Virus record (IMG/VR): IMGVR_UViG_2579779007_000003
Direction: 5' to 3' (one strand)
DNA from: a virus
Taxonomy: Duplodnaviria > Heunggongvirae > Uroviricota > Caudoviricetes
DNA length: 12,935 nt
This document shows, in pieces, positions 5,448-12,935 of this stretch (position 1 is the first letter of the stretch; each line of letters opens with the position of its first letter). The translations under genes and the position numbers were made by a program. The notes beneath the pieces were generated by a model. The model ran no database searches. It was given only the letters and a program-made list of their open reading frames with translations, and was not told where the DNA came from.

Positions 5448-5980
5448 CACCCTATCAGACGGCCTTTCTGCAATTACTGCCGTCAGGGCTTGCCTGGAAT
5501 AAAAGCCCCGACAGCAAATTATCTGCGCTGGCGCAGGCCATCAGTGACGTGATTGCCACTGCGGCGGATGATGCGCGGCAAATGCTGCGGGAGCGTTTCC
5601 CGTCCACATCCCGCTGGTATCTGGGGGAGTGGGAATCATTTCTGGGGTTGCCTGACTGTACCAGCGAAAACGGCACCCTGTCCGAACGCCAGCGGGCTGC
5701 CGCGAATAAAATGCGTATGACCGGCAATCTGAGTCGGCGTTTTTATGAATGGCTGGCTGCGCAGTACGGTTTTACCGTCAGGCTGACGGATTCCACAGAA
5801 GGCCAGTGGGTTACGCAGGTCAATATTTACGGTATTAAAAATTATCGCAACGCAACGGTGCTGGATAATGTTCTGACGCCGTTACGTGTTTATGAATCGG
5901 GTGCGCTGGAATGTTTACTGGAGAAATATAAACCCGCGCATCAGATTTATAAATTTGTTTACCATGACGGAGATAACTAA
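5438..5980 (+). CDS. Tail protein, P2 gpI-like (YmfQ-like)
   Basis: 180-aa ORF overlapping the upstream gene by 10 nt and the downstream S start by 1 nt (TAATG at 5976-5982). It occupies the position just before the tail-fibre gene, as in Mu and P2. Confidence 0.6.
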   Translation: MAVTPYQTAFLQLLPSGLAWNKSPDSKLSALAQAISDVIATAADDARQMLRERFPSTSRWYLGEWESFLGLPDCTSENGTLSERQRAAANKMRMTGNLSRRFYEWLAAQYGFTVRLTDSTEGQWVTQVNIYGIKNYRNATVLDNVLTPLRVYESGALECLLEKYKPAHQIYKFVYHDGDN

Positions 5981-7197
5981 TGTTTTATATTGATAACGAC
6001 AGCGGCGTAACCGTCATGCCGCCCGTATCCGCCCAGCGTAGTGCTATCGTTCGCTGGTTTTCAGAAGGTGACGGGAATAATGTTATCACATGGCCCGGCA
6101 TGGACTGGTTTAATATTGTTCAGGCGGAGTTATTAAACACGCTGGAAGAAGCCGGTATTCAACCGGATAAAACAAAATTAAACCAGCTTGCACTGTCCAT
6201 TAAAGCCATTATGAGCAATAACGCGCTGCTGATAAAAAATAACCTCAGCGAAATTAAAATTGCCGGGGCATCAGCACAGCGTACAGCACGTGAAAATCTG
6301 GATATCTATGATGCCAGCCTGAACAAAAAAGGACTCGTTCAGCTAACCAGTGCCACTGACAGCCCCAGTGAAACGCTGGCAGCCACCGCAAAAGCGGTGA
6401 AAATTGCGATGGATAATGCCAATGCCCGTCTGGCAAAAGACCGGAACGGAGCAGATATTCCCAATAAGCCGCTATTTATCCAAAACCTCGGTTTACGAGA
6501 ACTCGGCACAAGCGGGGAGAAAATACCGTTACTCAGTACAGCGAATACCTGGACTAATCGACAAACATTCAGCGGTGGCCTTTCTGGGGAACTGTCCGGC
6601 AATGCCGCTACTGCAACAAAGCTGAAAACAGCACGAAAAATTGCTGGAGTTGGTTTTGATGGTTCTAGCGATATTTCAATTAGTGCCAAAAATGTCAATG
6701 CATTTGCACTCCGACAAACAGGTAATACTGTTAATGGTGATACATCCGTTGGATGGAATTGGGATAGTGGTGCATATAACGCCCTGATTGGTGGTGCATC
6801 TGCATTAATTCTTCACTTTAATATAAATGCTGGTAGCTGTCCTGCCGTACAATTCCGTGTGAATTATAAAAATGGTGGCATTTCCTACAGGTCGGCTCGT
6901 GATGGTTATGGGTTTGAATTAGGTTGGTCAGATTTCTATACCACGACACGAAAACCTTCAGCGGGAGATGTTGGTGCATATACTCAGGCAGAATGTAACT
7001 CAAGGTTTATTACAGGTATTCGCCTTGGCGGTCTGTCATCTGTTCAGACATGGAATGGTCCCGGCTGGTCTGACAGGTCAGGTTATGTCGTTACGGGTTC
7101 AGTTAACGGAAACCGTGATGAATTAATTGATACAACTCAGGCAAGGCCAATTCAGTATTGCATTAATGGGACGTGGTATAATGCGGGGAGTATTTAA
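5980..7197 (+). CDS. S: Tail fibre protein S (constant part Sc about 5980-6489 fused to variable part Sv 6490-7197 in the present orientation)
   Basis: 405-aa ORF. It contains the conserved tail-fibre motif KKGLVQLTSATDSPSETLAATAKAVK and ends in the INGTWYN C-terminal motif. The gix-like site at 6476-6501 lies inside it and encodes IQNLGL. Confidence 0.8.
   Translation: MFYIDNDSGVTVMPPVSAQRSAIVRWFSEGDGNNVITWPGMDWFNIVQAELLNTLEEAGIQPDKTKLNQLALSIKAIMSNNALLIKNNLSEIKIAGASAQRTARENLDIYDASLNKKGLVQLTSATDSPSETLAATAKAVKIAMDNANARLAKDRNGADIPNKPLFIQNLGLRELGTSGEKIPLLSTANTWTNRQTFSGGLSGELSGNAATATKLKTARKIAGVGFDGSSDISISAKNVNAFALRQTGNTVNGDTSVGWNWDSGAYNALIGGASALILHFNINAGSCPAVQFRVNYKNGGISYRSARDGYGFELGWSDFYTTTRKPSAGDVGAYTQAECNSRFITGIRLGGLSSVQTWNGPGWSDRSGYVVTGSVNGNRDELIDTTQARPIQYCINGTWYNAGSI
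6476..6501. other. gix-like recombination site, left (gixL)
   Basis: TTATCCAAAACCTCGGTTTACGAGAA, made of two 12-bp imperfect inverted half-sites around a 2-bp core (TC at 6488-6489). It is present in inverted orientation at 9530-9555, matching 23 of 26 positions. It resembles the Gin/Hin/Cin/Pin crossover-site family. Confidence 0.8.
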
Positions 7198-7199
7198 CG

Positions 7200-7733
7200 A
7201 TGATGCACTTAAAAAACATTACTGCTGGCAACCCTAAAACAAAAGAGCAATACCAGCTAACAAAGCAATTTAACATCAAATGGCTTTATTCAGATGATGG
7301 AAAAAACTGGTATGAGGAACAAAAGAATTTCCAGCCAGACACTTTGAAAATGGTCTATGACCATAACGGCGTTATTATTTGTATTGAAAAGGATGTTTCA
7401 GCAATTAATCCGGAAGGCGCAAGCGTCGTTGAATTACCTGATATTACAGCAAATCGCCGGGCTGATATTTCGGGTAAATGGATGTTCAAAGATGGCGTAG
7501 TGGTAAAGCGAACTTATACCGAGGAAGAGCAGAGGCAGCAGGCGGAAAATGAAAAGCAAAGCCTGCTACAGCTCGTCAGGGATAAAACCCAGCTATGGGA
7601 CTCACAGCTACGGCTGGGCATCATTTCCGACGAGAATAAACAAAAATTAACAGAGTGGATGCTCTTTGCGCAGAAAGTCGAATCTACAGACACTTCCAGC
7701 CTGCCAGTAACGTTTCCAGAACAACCAGAATGA
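7200..7733 (+). CDS. U: Tail fibre assembly protein U
   Basis: 177-aa ORF starting MMHLKNI, 2 bp after the S stop. It is paralogous to the - strand ORF at 7762-8289 over most of its length. Confidence 0.8.
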   Translation: MMHLKNITAGNPKTKEQYQLTKQFNIKWLYSDDGKNWYEEQKNFQPDTLKMVYDHNGVIICIEKDVSAINPEGASVVELPDITANRRADISGKWMFKDGVVVKRTYTEEEQRQQAENEKQSLLQLVRDKTQLWDSQLRLGIISDENKQKLTEWMLFAQKVESTDTSSLPVTFPEQPE

Positions 7734-7736
7734 AAC

Positions 7737-7766
7737 AAGGCCCGCTATCGGGCCTTAATTTTTATT
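7737..7766. terminator. Bidirectional intrinsic terminator between the convergent U and U' genes
   Basis: Hairpin AAGGCCCG-CTAT-CGGGCCTT (7737-7756) followed by AATTTTTATT, 3 bp after the U stop. On the - strand the same hairpin sits just after the U' stop (7762-7764). Confidence 0.6.
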
Positions 7767-8289
7767 CAGGCTTTTGTGGCCATTCAGGATTTGCCGTATC
7801 CACACGGCTGACCAGAACACTGTAGCGTTCCCATGACTCCAGTCGTGCGCGTTCCTCATCCGTCGCCATATTCAGCCTGACGGCGCGTTCCAGTGGCTGA
7901 ATAACGCTTTCTGCTTCGGAAAGTAACGCGGCCTTTTGTGATTCTGCCTGTTGTTGCTGTTCGTCTGCCGTATAAATCCGTTTAACCACAGCTCCATCCT
8001 TAAACATCCACTTTCCTGAATCATCAGCGCGGCGGTTGGCTGTAATATCTGGAACCTCAACGACGCTAAAACCTTCAGGGTTAAGCGTGGAGGCATCTTT
8101 AGTGATGGCGACAATAATATTATTTGCATCGTAAACAATCTTTATTGTGTCTGGCTGAAAGTTTTTCACTTCCTCATACCAGTTTTTTTCGTCCTCAGAG
8201 TAAAGCCAGATGACTCCGTGCTTCTTTGTTAACTCATACTGCTCCAGTGTTTTAGCATTACCCGCTTTTATATTCTTTAAGTGCATCAT
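7762..8289 (-). CDS. Tail fibre assembly protein U' (alternative, expressed after inversion)
   Basis: 175-aa ORF starting MMHLKNI on the - strand, paralogous to U with a divergent C-terminal half. It is located inside the invertible segment. Confidence 0.75.
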
Positions 8290-8290
8290 A

Positions 8291-9541
8291 TTAAACGCTC
8301 GCTACATTATACCAGGTGCCATTTATATACTTTTGAACGGGTCTGTAATAAACGCCAGCTATATTATCGGCAGAATTGGACCCTGTATCCTGAACATTTA
8401 TACCAGACAATACATGACCTGAAGGGCACTGGAAGTTCCATGTTTGCCAGTTGTTCACACCATAATATTGCTGTGAGCCAAGCCGAACATCTTTCACATA
8501 TCGGGAATCAATGTTACCCCAGTTGCTTGGTTGTATCTGACCGTTTACAGCAAATATCACCGAGTTATCTGTATTTCGCTGACTATAGAAATGCCAGCCT
8601 GAATCATCACCAAGCTCTGCAACAGTTGGTCTTGACGAATTTCCCCACAAGTTAAATGATGCATTACGGGCAGCGGTATTTGCACTTGAAAGTGTGAAGA
8701 ACTTACTTTCCCCAGCCTGAATACCCTTTAATGATCTTGCTGAACCATTTATAAAGCGGAATACATGCACACCATTAGCATAAGCATCCAGCACCCCATC
8801 ACCATTTTGTTTAAACCCGGTATCGTTATCTCCTAAAACTATTGAATTTCCACCCAGGGCATTAGCCGTTCCAATCCCCAGATTTCCGCTAAAAATGGCA
8901 TTAATACCGAATATTGAGTGAGAACAATAAAACCCTCGCCCATTGTTAAAATCCAGAATGGCTTGTGCGTTCGTGCTTTCTGTCGCGGGATTAGTTGCTC
9001 CCCACTTATATGTTGTTTGACCGACGGTATAATCCTGAGTTGGAACAATAACCGTTAGCCCTTCTTCAGCAGAAACCCGCACAGGAAAAGCCCTGCCTTC
9101 AACGTAAAAAACGCTGCATACATCATCTTCTTTAAGGCTTGTTACAATGGAGTGGATTGCGCGCTCATTAGTCTGATACGTCGAAAAATAACCTGCCGCA
9201 TATGAACCACGATCAGTCCAGCCACCAGGCATTACCATTCCATTGAATTCGCAGTTATTCATTTCGTAATTACCACCGGCAGATGTGGTCGTTATAATCA
9301 CTCTGGAAGCCAGCTCGCCAGTGCTGCCTGTGGAACGCTGGAAAATAACTGGATACCACTTTCCACCAACAGCATTAGACGGCGCGTTAAATACGTACTG
9401 CCGCATTCCTTTTTTCTTATCCACCTCGCCTTTGCTGTAAACATTAATGTTACTCAGGAAGCGATCCTTATCAGGAATATCCGCGCCGTTCTGGTTTTTT
9501 TGTAATGCGCCAGAAGCCTGATTTACCGTTTCCTGCAAACC
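8291..9541 (-). CDS. Alternative tail-fibre variable segment Sv' (no start of its own; becomes the 3' part of S after inversion)
   Basis: The - strand frame is open from the gixR core (9542-9543) to a stop at 8291-8293. It encodes IQNLGLQE at the gix site in the same phase as S and ends in [12 protein letters not shown]. Sc (509 nt) plus Sv' (1252 nt) gives 1761 nt, an in-frame 586-aa fusion. The six-frame ORF extending on to 9724 is antisense to gin and not coding. Confidence 0.7.
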
Positions 9542-9555
9542 GAGGTTTTGGATAA
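9530..9555. other. gix-like recombination site, right (gixR)
   Basis: TTCCTGCAAACCGAGGTTTTGGATAA, the inverted copy of the 6476-6501 site, with core GA at 9542-9543 (reverse complement TC). Confidence 0.8.
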
Positions 9556-9609
9556 TGGCTGTTTCCGGCCTGCATGGCATGATTTGCGCTTTTAAACGGG
9601 AGATCCAGA

Positions 9610-10203
9610 GTGCTGATTGGCTATATAAGGGTATCAACAAATGACCAGAATACAGACCTGCAACGAAACGCTCTTGTTTGTGCAGGATGTGAACAAATAT
9701 TTGAAGATAAATTAAGCGGGACAAAGACAGACCGACCGGGATTAAAACGCGCTTTAAAGCGCCTTCAAAAAGGTGACACGCTGGTTGTCTGGAAACTGGA
9801 TCGCCTCGGGCGAAGCATGAAACATCTGATTTCTCTCGTCGGGGAACTACGGGAGCGAGGGATTAATTTTCGCAGTCTGACCGACAGCATAGACACATCT
9901 TCTCCAATGGGGCGTTTTTTCTTCCACGTTATGGGTGCTCTGGCTGAAATGGAACGAGAACTAATTATCGAGCGAACGATGGCTGGACTTGCTGCCGCCA
10001 GAAATAAAGGCCGTATTAGTGGGCGACCACCTAAACTAACCAAAGCAGAGTGGGAGCAGGCCGGGCGTTTATTAGCACAAGGAATCCCCCGCAAGCAGGT
10101 CGCATTGATCTACGATGTGGCCCTCTCAACTCTGTATAAAAAACACCCTGCGAAACGAACGCATATAGAAAACGACGATCGAATCAATCAAATCGATCGG
10201 TAA
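9610..10203 (+). CDS. gin: Serine recombinase / DNA invertase, Gin/Hin/Cin/Pin family
   Basis: 197-aa ORF starting at GTG 9610 with GGGAG upstream. The N-terminus MLIGYIRVSTNDQNTDLQ carries the catalytic serine motif, and the C-terminus has a helix-turn-helix region. It lies immediately right of the invertible segment. The recombinational enhancer is known to lie within the 5' part of gin in this family; it was not mapped here. Confidence 0.9.
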   Translation: MLIGYIRVSTNDQNTDLQRNALVCAGCEQIFEDKLSGTKTDRPGLKRALKRLQKGDTLVVWKLDRLGRSMKHLISLVGELRERGINFRSLTDSIDTSSPMGRFFFHVMGALAEMERELIIERTMAGLAAARNKGRISGRPPKLTKAEWEQAGRLLAQGIPRKQVALIYDVALSTLYKKHPAKRTHIENDDRINQIDR

Positions 10204-10211
10204 TACAGATC
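10177..10211. promoter_or_regulatory. Cluster of three GATC (Dam) sites upstream of the com-mom promoter
   Basis: GATC at 10177-10180, 10195-10198 and 10208-10211, all within 35 bp at the 3' end of gin. This matches the known Dam-methylation-dependent control region of the Mu mom operon. Confidence 0.7.
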
Positions 10212-10285
10212 GATTATGCCCTAATAACCACACTTAACCCACGATGTTTTTTAAGATAGTGGCGAATTGATGCAAAGGAGGTGAG
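10212..10285 (+). promoter_or_regulatory. Candidate mom-operon promoter region
   Basis: Contains a TTAT-N6-ATAA dyad (10214-10227), a T6 run (10247-10252) next to -10-like hexamers (TAAGAT or GATAGT, 10252-10260), and AGGAGG (10276-10281) before the com ATG. The exact -35 and -10 elements and the transcription start are not resolved. Confidence 0.45.
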
Positions 10286-10474
10286 ATGAAATCAATTCGC
10301 TGTAAAAACTGCAACAAACTGTTATTTAAGGCGGATTCCTTTGTTCACATTGAAATCAGGTGTCCGCGTTGCAAACGTCACATCATAATGCTGAATGCCT
10401 GCGAGCATCCCACGGAGAAACATTGTGGGAAAAGAGAAGAAATCACGCATTCTGACGAAACCGTGCGTTATTGA
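10286..10474 (+). CDS. com: Com, zinc-finger translational activator of mom
   Basis: 62-aa [38 protein letters not shown] with CxxC-(17)-CxxC zinc-binding spacing and a strong RBS. It is near-identical to Mu Com as I recall it, and is followed by the overlapping mom gene. Confidence 0.9.
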
Positions 10475-11132
10475 GTATGAAGGCCAGATTGTTGGCTATG
10501 GTTCAAAGGAGCTGCGCGTTGAAACCATATCCTGCTGGCTAGCCCGCACAATTATTCAGACAAAGCACTATTCCCGCCGTTTTGTGAATAACTCTTACCT
10601 TCACCTGGGGGTATTCAGCGGACGCGATCTGGTTGGCGTTCTCCAGTGGGGATATGCCCTTAACCCCAACTCAGGTCGTCGTGTCGTGCTTGAAACGGAT
10701 AACCGGGGCTATATGGAGTTGAACCGCATGTGGCTACACGACGACATGCCCCGCAACTCTGAATCACGGGCCATTAGCTACGCGCTGAAAGTTATCAGAT
10801 TACTGTATCCGTCAGTGGAGTGGGTTCAGTCCTTTGCTGACGAACGCTGCGGACGCGCAGGCGTTGTGTATCAGGCGTCGAATTTTGATTTTATTGGCAG
10901 CCATGAAAGCACGTTCTACGAGCTGGATGGTGAGTGGTATCACGAGATAACGATGAACGCGATTAAGCGAGGTGGACAACGAGGCGTGTATTTACGGGCT
11001 AATAAAGAGCGTGCCGTGGTGCACAAATTTAATCAGTATCGCTACATCAGATTCCTGAACAAGCGAGCAAGGAAGCGGCTAAATACCAAGCTATTTAGGG
11101 TTCAGCCGTACCCTAAAAGCACTCCCGATTAG
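10395..11132 (+). CDS. mom: Mom DNA-modification protein (adenine modification, anti-restriction)
   Basis: Longest ORF in this frame (245 aa), overlapping the 3' end of com and ending at TAG 11130-11132. The true start is uncertain: in-frame candidates are ATG 10395 and GTG 10425, and there is no in-frame ATG after the com stop. Assigned from the Gin-Com-Mom order and my recollection of Mu Mom. Confidence 0.8.
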
Positions 11133-11215
11133 TATCAAATAATTTTTCGTTGTGCCGTTTTGGGTGGTATCAAAAAAAATCCAAAACGGTATCAAATGAT
11201 TTTGCGCGCTTTATG
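11133..11215. other. Element terminus / junction region between the Mu-like segment and the lambdoid stf
   Basis: 83 bp between the mom stop and the stf divergence point. It contains three direct copies of GTATCAAA (11132-11139, 11167-11174, 11189-11196) and TTTTTCGTTGTGCCGTTTTG (11143-11162). I could not recognise canonical Mu R1/R2 transposase-binding sites here. Confidence 0.4.
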
Positions 11216-12754
11216 AACTATCCCTTTCTGTGCTGTCGTTGCATCCTGTGCGGTGTATTTCCCGTTAGCCAGGTCATACGCGGCCTTAACTGCTTTTGGC
11301 GTTGCCGCCAGTGACTCGGAAGTGCTGTTAGTCGCACTGCTGAGCTGTACTATCCCCTTTTTCGTCGTGCTCGCATCCTCAAGCGCCACGGCGGATGCAA
11401 TATCCTCTGCCCGTTTTGCCGCTGTCTCAGCGCGCGTTGCTGCGGATTCTGCCGTACTTTTGCTCTGTGCTGCCGCTGCCGCACTGCCAGCTGCCTCTGT
11501 CGCCTTCGTGGATGCTGTCGTGGCGCTGCCCTTCGCTGCTGACGCCTGTCTGGTCGCCTCATCTTTTGAAGCAGACGCCGATGATGCCGATGACGCCGCC
11601 GAACTGGCGGACGATGCGGCAGCCGTTTTTGAGGATTCTGCGTTGGTTTCCGACGCTTTCGCGTTCGTTTCGGATGTCTTCGCTGCGGAAGCAGACCTCG
11701 CTGCTGCGCTGGCCTGTTCAGTGGCTTCGCCAGCCTTCGTTGTGGCTGTTGAAGCGGATGATGCGGCGCTTTCTGCCGATTTTCCGGCGGCGGTGGCACT
11801 GGCTGAGGCCTGCCCGGCACTTGTTGACGCGGCACTGGCCGACGACACAGCCGCTGTTTTTGAGCCTGCTGCTGCGGAGGCACTCTGTGCTGCTGCCGTT
11901 TCAGAGGACTTGGCGTTTGTCTCAGACGTCTTTGCCGCCTTCGCGGAATTTCCTGCCGCCGTTGCCGAGGAAGCTGCACTACTGGCGCTTGATGATGCGT
12001 TCGTTTCTGATGATTTCGCCGCCTCTTTTGAGGCCGCCGCATCCCGGGCTGAGGTGGCAGCTTCTGACGCTTTCGTGGTCGCGGTGGATGCAGAAGTGGC
12101 TGCTGATTGTTGTGACGCTGCGGCATTCGTTTCTGACGTTTTCGCGGCACTGGCACTGGTAGCTGCCGCGCTTTTTGAGGACTCTGCAGCAGCAGCACTT
12201 TTCGATGCTTCACTGGCCTTTGTTGATGCCGTTCCTGCGCTGGAAGACGCTGACTGAGCCGACGACGCGGCCTGTCCGGCTGACGTGCTGGCTGCACGTG
12301 CTGAATCTGCAGCATCAGTCGCACGGGTTGCCGCCTCACTGGCAGATGTGCTGGCATCACTGGCTGACTTCTTTGCGGCTGCCGTGTTCTGTGCCACCAC
12401 GGACGCGTTACGCGCCACCTCTTCCACCATCAGTTCAAAACGACGCAGTGCCTCCGGACGGGCATCATCCTCCGTCATGGCACCGAGAAAATCATTCAGC
12501 GTACCGGGTTGAGAATCTTCATACACGGTGATGGTCCCGGCATGTGACGGCGGGAATCCTTCCACCAACAGAATAACGCTGTACTGACCGTACTCAACGT
12601 CCATGCTGTAACGCCCGGCTTCATCCGGATTTTCTGAGGCCAGCGTGTTCACCACCACAGTGGTACTGTTACGTTTTGCTTTCAGCTGGATTGTGCAGTT
12701 CTGTACCGGTTTTCCTGTGCCGTCTTTCAGTACACCTGAAATCTTTACTGCCAT
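11192..12754 (-). CDS. stf: Lambdoid side tail fibre protein Stf, N-terminal about 520 aa, truncated at the junction
   Basis: Starts at ATG 12752-12754 (MAVKISGVLKDGTGKPVQNCTIQLKA, the lambda Stf N-terminus) with GGGGTG upstream; the six-frame track begins 2 codons earlier at GTG. It has a long Ala/Ser/Thr-rich repeat region and the conserved KGIVQLSSATNSTSESLAATPKAVK motif. After a second QKGIV copy the frame reads HKARKII then stop (TGA at 11192-11194) instead of continuing the motif. Confidence 0.85.
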   Translation of the reverse strand: MAVKISGVLKDGTGKPVQNCTIQLKAKRNSTTVVVNTLASENPDEAGRYSMDVEYGQYSVILLVEGFPPSHAGTITVYEDSQPGTLNDFLGAMTEDDARPEALRRFELMVEEVARNASVVAQNTAAAKKSASDASTSASEAATRATDAADSARAASTSAGQAASSAQSASSSAGTASTKASEASKSAAAAESSKSAAATSASAAKTSETNAAASQQSAATSASTATTKASEAATSARDAAASKEAAKSSETNASSSASSAASSATAAGNSAKAAKTSETNAKSSETAAAQSASAAAGSKTAAVSSASAASTSAGQASASATAAGKSAESAASSASTATTKAGEATEQASAAARSASAAKTSETNAKASETNAESSKTAAASSASSAASSASSASASKDEATRQASAAKGSATTASTKATEAAGSAAAAAQSKSTAESAATRAETAAKRAEDIASAVALEDASTTKKGIVQLSSATNSTSESLAATPKAVKAAYDLANGKYTAQDATTAQKGIVHKARKII

Positions 12755-12765
12755 ATTCACCCCAC

Positions 12766-12818: not shown

Positions 12819-12935
12819 TCAGAATTTATAACCGACACCCACGATGAAACCGTCAGTGCGCCAGTCACCACTGCCGGAGCCTTCATAAGCAATATCAATG
12901 GCCACGGATTCGGTCGGGTTAAACTGCACGCCAGC
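12819..12935 (-). CDS. lom: Lom/Ail/PagC-family outer-membrane protein, C-terminal fragment (5' end lies outside the window)
   Basis: The - strand translation ends ...IAYEGSGSGDWRTDGFIVGVGYKF then stop (12819-12821). An aromatic-X-aromatic C-terminus is typical of beta-barrel outer-membrane proteins, and the position upstream of stf is as in lambda. Confidence 0.65.
   Translation of the reverse strand, partial: AGVQFNPTESVAIDIAYEGSGSGDWRTDGFIVGVGYKF

Follow-up and report, generated by a model that had tools for sequence, protein, structure and literature searches.

The Mu G segment and related switches

The Gin mechanism and the G(+)/G(-) host-range switch of phage Mu have been described (PMC3575834, PMC4406740). 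The C segment of P1 (Cin/cix), the P segment of e14 (Pin), whose inversion has also been described (PMC4272514), the Hin/hix system and the Min system of p15B all likewise combine a serine invertase with 26-bp sites, and in the phage members of the Din family it is the C-termini of the tail fibres that alternate, while Salmonella Hin flips a promoter and not a coding end. Min acts on six sites, whereas only two are present in the window analysed here, which spans the entire contig AQGO01000088.1 (12,935 nucleotides) from the draft assembly of an E. coli strain. The prophage whose right arm lies on this contig is Mu-like. Based on our results, the region between these two sites is almost certainly the G segment of a transposable E. 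coli prophage of the Mu type, invertible at gix and probably flipped by Gin. We judge this switch to be real because both orientations of the same element occur in public E. coli assemblies; it is nonetheless an ordinary one, of a kind already known from the G segment of Mu, and it adds little in principle to G inversion by Gin, which is textbook knowledge.

The Mu-like gene content of the window includes Gp45, GP46, Baseplate_J, Gp48, Com and Mom, and the order of the Mu late and tail genes is kept, with gin, com and mom coming last before the phage end. This right end, at position 11213, is identical in four genomic contexts, each with a different host flank, and its last ~100 bp differ from those of Mu and SfMu. 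Within the segment and beside it, the order Sc, gix, Sv, U, U', Sv', gix, gin, com, mom is that of Mu, protein identity reaches 99% for Sc, 98% for Gin and 92-97% for the chaperones, and the gix sites are 1-2 bases off those of Mu. Segment length is also comparable (3,080 bp, versus 3,084 bp in Mu). In comparison with the Mu reference, however, it is genes of the Mu S'/U' type that stand in the expressed position. The Sv found there falls short of Mu Sv' by 83 aa and differs from it in its N-terminal part, and the place of Mu Sv is taken by a mosaic module of 414 aa with only ~25% identity to it. Among isolated phages, the best match is SfMu, which covers 72% of window positions 5900-10300 at 93.6% identity and has the same layout, but is without most of the long Sv' module and without the N-terminal part of our Sv; its fibre genes encode a 488-aa protein and comprise a silent ORF of 966 nt. 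P1 and D6 have the U/U' DNA and that for the C-terminal part of Sv in common with the window, at 91-93% identity.

The gix sites and the two fibre-chaperone pairs

The left gix (6476-6501, plus strand; TTATCCAAAACC-TC-GGTTTACGAGAA) lies inside the S coding frame, where it encodes IQNLGLRE, and has 2 mismatches to Mu gix, while the right gix (9530-9555, minus strand; reverse complement TTATCCAAAACC-TC-GGTTTGCAGGAA) has 1 mismatch. The first-pass annotation of this DNA, made from the sequence alone, had described these as inverted copies of a 26-bp gix-like site that encode IQNLGL in the same phase, and both statements hold, as the two sites are 26 nt long and 88% complementary (23/26 matching) and IQNLGL is encoded by each in one common phase. 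Nineteen contiguous bases are identical in both arms; they take in the outer half-site and the central TC and reach 5 bases into the inner half-site. The 3 differences between the arms sit 6-9 bp from the centre. The inverted repeats of Mu, on the other hand, are perfect over 34 bp, and given the shorter and less perfect repeats found here, the rate of inversion could differ from that of Mu. Additional crossover sites, such as those of the multi-site Min system, were sought across the window, and none were found beyond the two gix sites.

The constant N-terminal part of the fibre, Sc (5980..6475, plus strand), ends at the left gix, measures 172 aa when counted through IQNLGL, and was recognized through its homology to Mu Sc (99.4% protein identity) and a Phage_fiber_2 domain at aa 113-153. 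In the PDB, 5yvq (Mu S) is matched over aa 1-188 and 8ju3 (Mu S/S') over aa 1-203. The variable C-terminus that now stands in the expressed position, Sv (6502..7197, plus strand), completes an S protein of 405 aa (5980-7197). Its C-terminal part is of the Mu S' type: bases 6699-7197 are ~89% identical to Mu Sv', reversed relative to the Mu reference, and the final 60 aa of the expressed fibre are those of Mu S', with no difference. Downstream lies U (7200..7733, plus strand), the tail-fibre assembly chaperone now predicted to be co-expressed, which carries a Caudo_TAP domain (E = 3e-36), and is of the Mu U' type, with 96.6% identity to Mu U' as against 57% to Mu U.

On the opposite strand, the silent chaperone U' (7762..8289, minus strand) also carries Caudo_TAP (E = 1e-37), the domain of tail-fibre assembly proteins, and is of the Mu U type, being 92% identical to Mu U. 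The silent alternative C-terminus, Sv' (8291..9529, minus strand), extends for 414 aa after IQNLGL and is a mosaic fibre module. Its first ~30 aa are Mu S'-like and its last ~20 aa Mu S-like, its N-terminal half resembles the side tail fibres of, among other phages, vB_EcoS_HdSG1, JenK1 and 9g, and its C-terminal half resembles the P2-type gpH of Wphi; the best full-length match among phages is 57%. When the variable parts were compared, Sv and Sv' were 19% identical. The terminal INGTWYN motif that the first-pass annotation saw in both fibres is indeed common to them, as found by comparing the end ...CINGTWYNAGSI with a second 12-residue end. Each of the two chaperone genes starts 1-2 nt past the stop codon of its own fibre end, and the pairs are convergent, with a putative bidirectional hairpin terminator between them (7736..7757) that has terminator-like sites on both strands and a GC-rich stem of 8-9 bp. 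In NCBIfam, S, U and U' were without a specific family and the recombinase matches of Gin were sub-threshold.

These comparisons bear on the orientation of the segment, described earlier as the one that expresses S and U. The gene layout behind that description stands, but the label does not, as by homology the pair in the expressed position is that of Mu S'/U', the G(-) genes. Because U is most similar to Mu U' (96.6%), the fibre tip is that of Mu S', and the silent chaperone resembles Mu U (92%), the present orientation is G(-)-like in Mu nomenclature.

Gin and the proposed inversion

The gene for the serine DNA invertase Gin (9610..10203, plus strand; 197 aa, GTG start) directly adjoins the segment and encodes a protein with a Resolvase domain (E = 1.5e-50) and HTH_7. 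Its integrity had been in question, and the ORF is in fact intact and wholly inside the window. Gin is identical to Mu Gin at 189/193 aligned residues (98%), keeps the catalytic Ser9, and has a 4-aa C-terminal extension; the exact protein was found on 94 contigs of public collections. The 345 bp beyond the right gix, on the gin side, are also close to Mu, and the first 200 nt of gin carry only 4 substitutions. The 5' part of gin (9610..9810) presumably contains the Fis-bound recombinational enhancer (sis), as it does in Mu.

Following the Mu paradigm, dimers of Gin would bind the two inverted 26-bp gix sites and, with host Fis probably acting at the enhancer in the 5' part of gin, would cut both sites with staggered double-strand breaks at the central TC; one pair of half-sites would then rotate by 180 degrees before the strands are religated, which would invert the 3,080 bp between the sites. 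Since the left gix lies inside the tail-fibre gene, the reading frame of Sc continues into either of two variable ends. As the segment now stands, Sc and Sv would yield the 405-aa fibre, followed by chaperone U, whereas in the flipped state a fibre of 586 aa made of Sc and Sv' would be followed by U', and the hairpin at 7736-7757 would end transcription of whichever pair stands downstream of Sc. Inversion performed in silico did place Sc in frame with Sv', yielding 586 aa without a stop in place of the 405-aa S, as had been predicted. By analogy with Mu, the two orientations would differ in host range, and a lysogenic population might release particles with two receptor specificities, a form of host-range bet-hedging.

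Although the same paradigm makes Gin the probable catalyst, the segment might instead be inverted by another enzyme of the Din family acting in trans, such as e14 Pin or an invertase encoded by a P2-like prophage; homologous recombination is a further candidate. Gin, Cin, Hin and Pin are known to complement one another, and near-identical cassettes with gix-like sites and recombinase genes reside on the P2-like prophages of many E. coli, all of which would favor an outside enzyme. However, with an intact gin, nearly identical to that of Mu, directly beside the segment, no outside enzyme is required, and the 19 bp of identity would be very short for a RecA-dependent exchange. We therefore regard inversion by anything other than this gin as very improbable; such a scenario would, in any case, bear on the catalyst and leave the nature of the switch untouched.

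Both isomers, and a possible module exchange with P2-like prophages

Our complete-genome searches covered 5,426 E. coli genomes, and exact-sequence look-up was performed on a larger collection, of draft assemblies. Among complete E. coli genomes, a full-length query of the inverted isomer reached at least 80% coverage in no record, while the native isomer reached at least 80% coverage in MB06231 only, at 92% identity. A junction query found Mu-type Sc joined to this Sv' in none of the 5,426 complete genomes, and the native left junction was spanned by only two distant records among complete E. coli genomes. The draft assemblies of the larger collection, where alone the fusion was found, reversed this negative picture: the exact predicted 586-aa fusion of Sc and Sv' (P0001) is present on 11 contigs of public E. 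coli assemblies, and the exact 405-aa S on 5 contigs of public collections. Two of these loci, L007, in the orientation of the window, and L012, in the inverted one, occupy one and the same chromosomal insertion site, bordered by identical host DNA. Over 13,218 bp they differ in nothing but the orientation of the 3,080 bp between the sites, which are exactly inverted, and otherwise show 100% identity. Where the alignments of the flanks and of the segment overlap, they do so over the 19-bp common core and no more, and ACGAGAA and GCAGGAA, the inner half-sites, are exchanged between the two loci, as predicted. In the inverted isomers L011 and L012, the inner half-site of the left gix now adjoins gin. 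In L004, too, the Sv-U module of the window, with its ACGAGAA half-site, is found in the silent position beside gin. The segment of the window is that of L012 reversed (3080/3080 bases identical), with no frameshift in Sv'. The natural isomers therefore bear out the first-pass annotation in its central claim, namely a Gin/gix inversion that exchanges the ends of the fibre without loss of frame and places U' under the S promoter, and its checkable claims held in all cases (6/6). Judging from these sister assemblies, switching probably also takes place within the source isolate itself.

It could still be argued that the locus is a frozen relic, with drifted sites (3 differences between the arms), no inversion, and an Sv'-U' pair that is never used. 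The imperfect match of the arms (23/26, compared to the perfect 34 bp of Mu) would agree with such a scenario, and the authors of the SfMu study raised a like possibility when they suspected that one single change beside the crossover could impair inversion. Against it, however, stand the two isomers of an identical element at one insertion site, the recovery of both the exact fusion and the exact S from public assemblies, and the fact that Sv' and U' are intact and unchanged across assemblies, which together leave this explanation with hardly any probability. Even with no more than 19 identical bases, then, a gix pair still switches in nature.

A bare inverted repeat would be unremarkable, because the window holds many repeats of like size. 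A chance repeat was nevertheless rejected, as scanning the window with the 26-mer of Mu gix, allowing for up to 3 mismatches, returned 2 matches (with 2 and 1 mismatches) compared to 0 in 200 shuffles; the AAACCNNGGTTT core occurs in the window just at the two gix sites.

Related cassettes are also found on a different backbone. In the outbreak strains 95JB1 and 95NR1, which provide an independent example, window positions 6738-9555 have a counterpart of ~95% identity on a P2-like prophage. This cassette is oppositely oriented in the two near-isogenic strains, its flanks are 100% identical, and either state leaves the fibre ORF intact (700 and 798 aa). It exemplifies the invertible H-gene cassettes that P2-like prophages carry in EHEC O111, O145 and O103, in which the long Sv', U', U and the C-terminal part of Sv adjoin a serine recombinase, but the constant part is the N-terminus of a P2-type gpH and the backbone is P2-like and not Mu-like. 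The long Sv' end is also present on fibres that measure 699-870 aa and have N-termini of the P2 type, and in other E. coli prophages homology to this Sv or Sv' starts exactly at the first base of gix. Although we hold this as a tentative reading, somewhat less probable than its opposite, gix sites might also serve as portable splice points through which entire cassettes of fibre and chaperone are swapped between backbones that are unrelated, Mu-like on one side and P2-like on the other. If prophages residing in one host have sites and invertases in common, Gin-type recombination from one to the other could also rearrange the chromosome. Our analysis thus documents a Mu-like prophage with a 586-aa mosaic alternative fibre that it shares with P2-like prophages of pathogenic E. 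coli. It also carries a warning for annotation, as silent-strand ORFs of 377-429 aa that are recorded in various assemblies as 'hypothetical protein' or short 'tail protein' are the C-terminal half of the alternative fibre.

Crossover sites, reading frames and invertase

The window is the complete contig AQGO01000088.1 (12,935 bp) in GCA_000647475.1, a draft assembly of E. coli. A Mu-like prophage is represented here by its right arm, in which the end of a tape-measure gene and a gene for a DNA-circularisation protein are followed by the baseplate genes Gp45, GP46, Baseplate_J and Gp48, and then by tail fibre S, U, U', Sv', gin, com and mom. The top isolated-phage match for 5900-10300 is Shigella phage SfMu (72% coverage, 93.6% identity), and there are partial matches to Mu, D108, P1, D6 and P2-like phages.

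The first-pass annotation had proposed an invertible tail-fibre switch in this region, and the figures on which it relied all proved correct. A repeat search of the window recovered the inverted arms at 6476-6501 and 9530-9555 (26 nt, 88% complementary); inverted repeats of such size are common in the window, and size alone is not notable. The Mu gix 26-mer, however, matches the two sites with 2 and 1 mismatches and found no match in 200 shuffles, and AAACCNNGGTTT cores occur in the window at these two sites only. The arms agree at 23 of 26 positions, including 19 contiguous identities that span TTATCCAAAACC (the outer half-site), the TC at the centre and GGTTT. IQNLGL is encoded in phase at both sites; S (5980-7197) encodes 405 aa, in-silico inversion of 6476-9555 leaves an open frame of 586 aa, and both products share the terminal motif INGTWYN. 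U and U' are Caudo_TAP chaperones. A GC-rich hairpin with a terminator score on both strands (7736-7757) lies between the two convergent gene pairs.

The gin gene, whose integrity the first-pass annotation had left to be verified, is intact and lies inside the window at 9610-10203, with a GTG start and Resolvase and HTH_7 domains. Its product is identical to Mu Gin at 189 of 193 aligned residues, has Ser9, ends in a 4-residue C-terminal extension relative to Mu Gin, and is found in exactly this form on 94 contigs. The DNA from the right gix to gin is almost as in Mu, with four substitutions within the first 200 nt of gin, a 5' region that in Mu we take to be the location of the Fis-bound enhancer. 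Gin would be the catalyst here, probably dependent on Fis and on an enhancer in that position. If inversion proceeds as described for Mu Gin (PMC3575834, PMC4406740), the two gix sites would be bound by Gin dimers, with Fis aiding synapsis, and cut at the central dinucleotide via a phosphoserine link before 180-degree rotation and religation; Sc would thereby be joined to Sv or Sv', with the matching chaperone placed downstream and a possible change in host range. What PMC3575834 confirms is limited to the parts played by Gin, gix and Fis. This kind of switch is textbook knowledge; what is new is the combination of cassettes and the degenerate, evidently active sites.

Natural isomers and their orientation

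Besides the parts and their frames, both natural isomers were established here. Public collections contain the exact predicted 586-aa fusion, listed as a tail-fibre protein of E. coli (P0001; ELH0673526.1, HDW8682732.1 and others), and likewise the exact 405-aa S, and the fetched loci comprise 5 contigs with the 405-aa form and 11 with the 586-aa form. In two E. coli loci, L007 (window orientation) and L012 (flipped), the prophage occupies one shared chromosomal site, adjoining genes for a sigma-54 activator and for a SIS/CBS-domain protein, and these loci are 100% identical across 13,218 bp save for the exact inversion of 6497-9576, with 0 mismatches. The 19-bp common core is all that the aligned flanks share with the inverted block, which places the crossover inside that core, in agreement with an exchange at the sites' central TC. 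The inner half-sites are swapped: L007 has GGTTTACGAGAA at the left site and GGTTTGCAGGAA beside gin, and L012 has GGTTTGCAGGAA at the left site and GGTTTACGAGAA beside gin. The window segment is identical to that of L012 in reverse (3080/3080), so the frameshift in Sv' that the first-pass annotation had named as a possible objection is not present.

It is very improbable that the segment is inverted in trans by another invertase of the Din family, or by homologous recombination, as an outside invertase is unnecessary with gin intact, and RecA-dependent exchange across 19 bp would be unlikely. Even less credible is a frozen relic that no longer inverts, which is contradicted by two loci identical save for an exact inversion. 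A further contig of the same prophage (L010, Logan SRR35509395) ends within Sv' at locus position 9479 (window 9458), some 70 bp from the right gix; a mixture of reads in the two orientations might explain this break, as might a related fibre gene at another place in that genome.

In one respect the initial description needs correction, as the contig had been labelled as being in the S-U expressing orientation. Window 6699-8353 aligns to Mu in reverse. Of the two chaperones, the expressed one is closer to Mu U' (96.6% identity) than to Mu U (57%), and the silent one shows 92% identity to Mu U. The expressed fibre ends in 60 residues identical to those of Mu S', and the silent fibre end resembles Mu S. 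By Mu nomenclature, these alignments place the contig in a G(-)-like state.

Mosaic fibre modules

Mu Sv' exceeds the expressed Sv by 83 aa, and the two are unrelated over an N-terminal stretch. The silent Sv' begins with about 30 aa that are Mu S'-like, continues with a region resembling the side tail fibres of vB_EcoS_HdSG1, JenK1 and 9g, among others, and resembles P2-type gpH (Wphi) in its second half, up to a tip of about 20 aa like that of Mu S. At full length its best match among isolated phages is 57%, and E. coli and Salmonella assemblies encode 586-aa proteins with 97-100% identity over the full length. The Sv' part also occurs on longer fibres (699-870 aa, many with a PF12571 domain), in which its end is joined to several differing fibre N-termini. 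In other E. coli prophages, the first base of gix (window 6476 or 9555; query position 301) is exactly where homology to Sv or Sv' sets in, and a module boundary falls at gix. Such a start fits the tentative proposal that Mu-like and P2-like prophages may exchange cassettes as modules bounded by gix sites.

The silent-strand frame at 8291-9724 (-) stays open beyond the right gix, up to 9724. Since gene callers assign Sv' a start codon of its own, the called products measure 377, 388 or 429 aa depending on the assembly; these ORFs are truncated annotations of the alternative fibre end, not separate genes.

Related elements add to the evidence for inversion. Two strains from an O111 outbreak, 95JB1 and 95NR1, have a P2-like prophage whose cassette shares about 95% identity with window 6738-9555 and is inverted between the two strains within flanks that are 100% identical; the fibre ORF measures 700 aa in one state and 798 aa in the other. 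The Sv-U module of the window also occurs in isolate 30602_1#64 of E. coli (L004, NZ_OZ040490.1), where it occupies the silent position beside gin and is accompanied by its ACGAGAA half-site.

Prophage ends and host insertion

The prophage has its right end at position 11213 (...GGTATCAAATGATTTTGCGCGCTTTA). The final ~100 bp (11117-11213) have no homology to the right end of Mu or SfMu, and the terminal bases are TTTA rather than the CA of Mu. The same right end adjoins different host DNA in the window and in the E. coli loci L008, L011 and L013, and a fourth flank is seen in L007 and L012, whose homology to the window stops at 11213; transposition of the element follows from these differing flanks. 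Strain FDAARGOS_1059 has a complete copy of the prophage (L013 1721-1750 and 38690-38960), in which the left end reads TAAATTATTTGATAC and which is flanked by GAGGT, a possible 5-bp duplication. Repeats of the ATTTGATAC type are found at both prophage ends.

In the window, the Mu-like prophage sits within the side-tail-fibre gene of a lambdoid prophage (11192-12760 (-) and 12819-12935 (-)). A 522-aa ORF bearing PF08400 (the 'Prophage tail fibre N-terminal' domain) extends into the Mu end, lom adjoins it, and homology to the intact gene, which is common in E. coli in uninterrupted form, begins at 11214-11219. Degenerate 21/42-nt periodic repeats at 11597-12187 (families D1-D3, 5-7 copies, 60-77% identity) presumably represent a repeated fibre-shaft motif of the interrupted gene.
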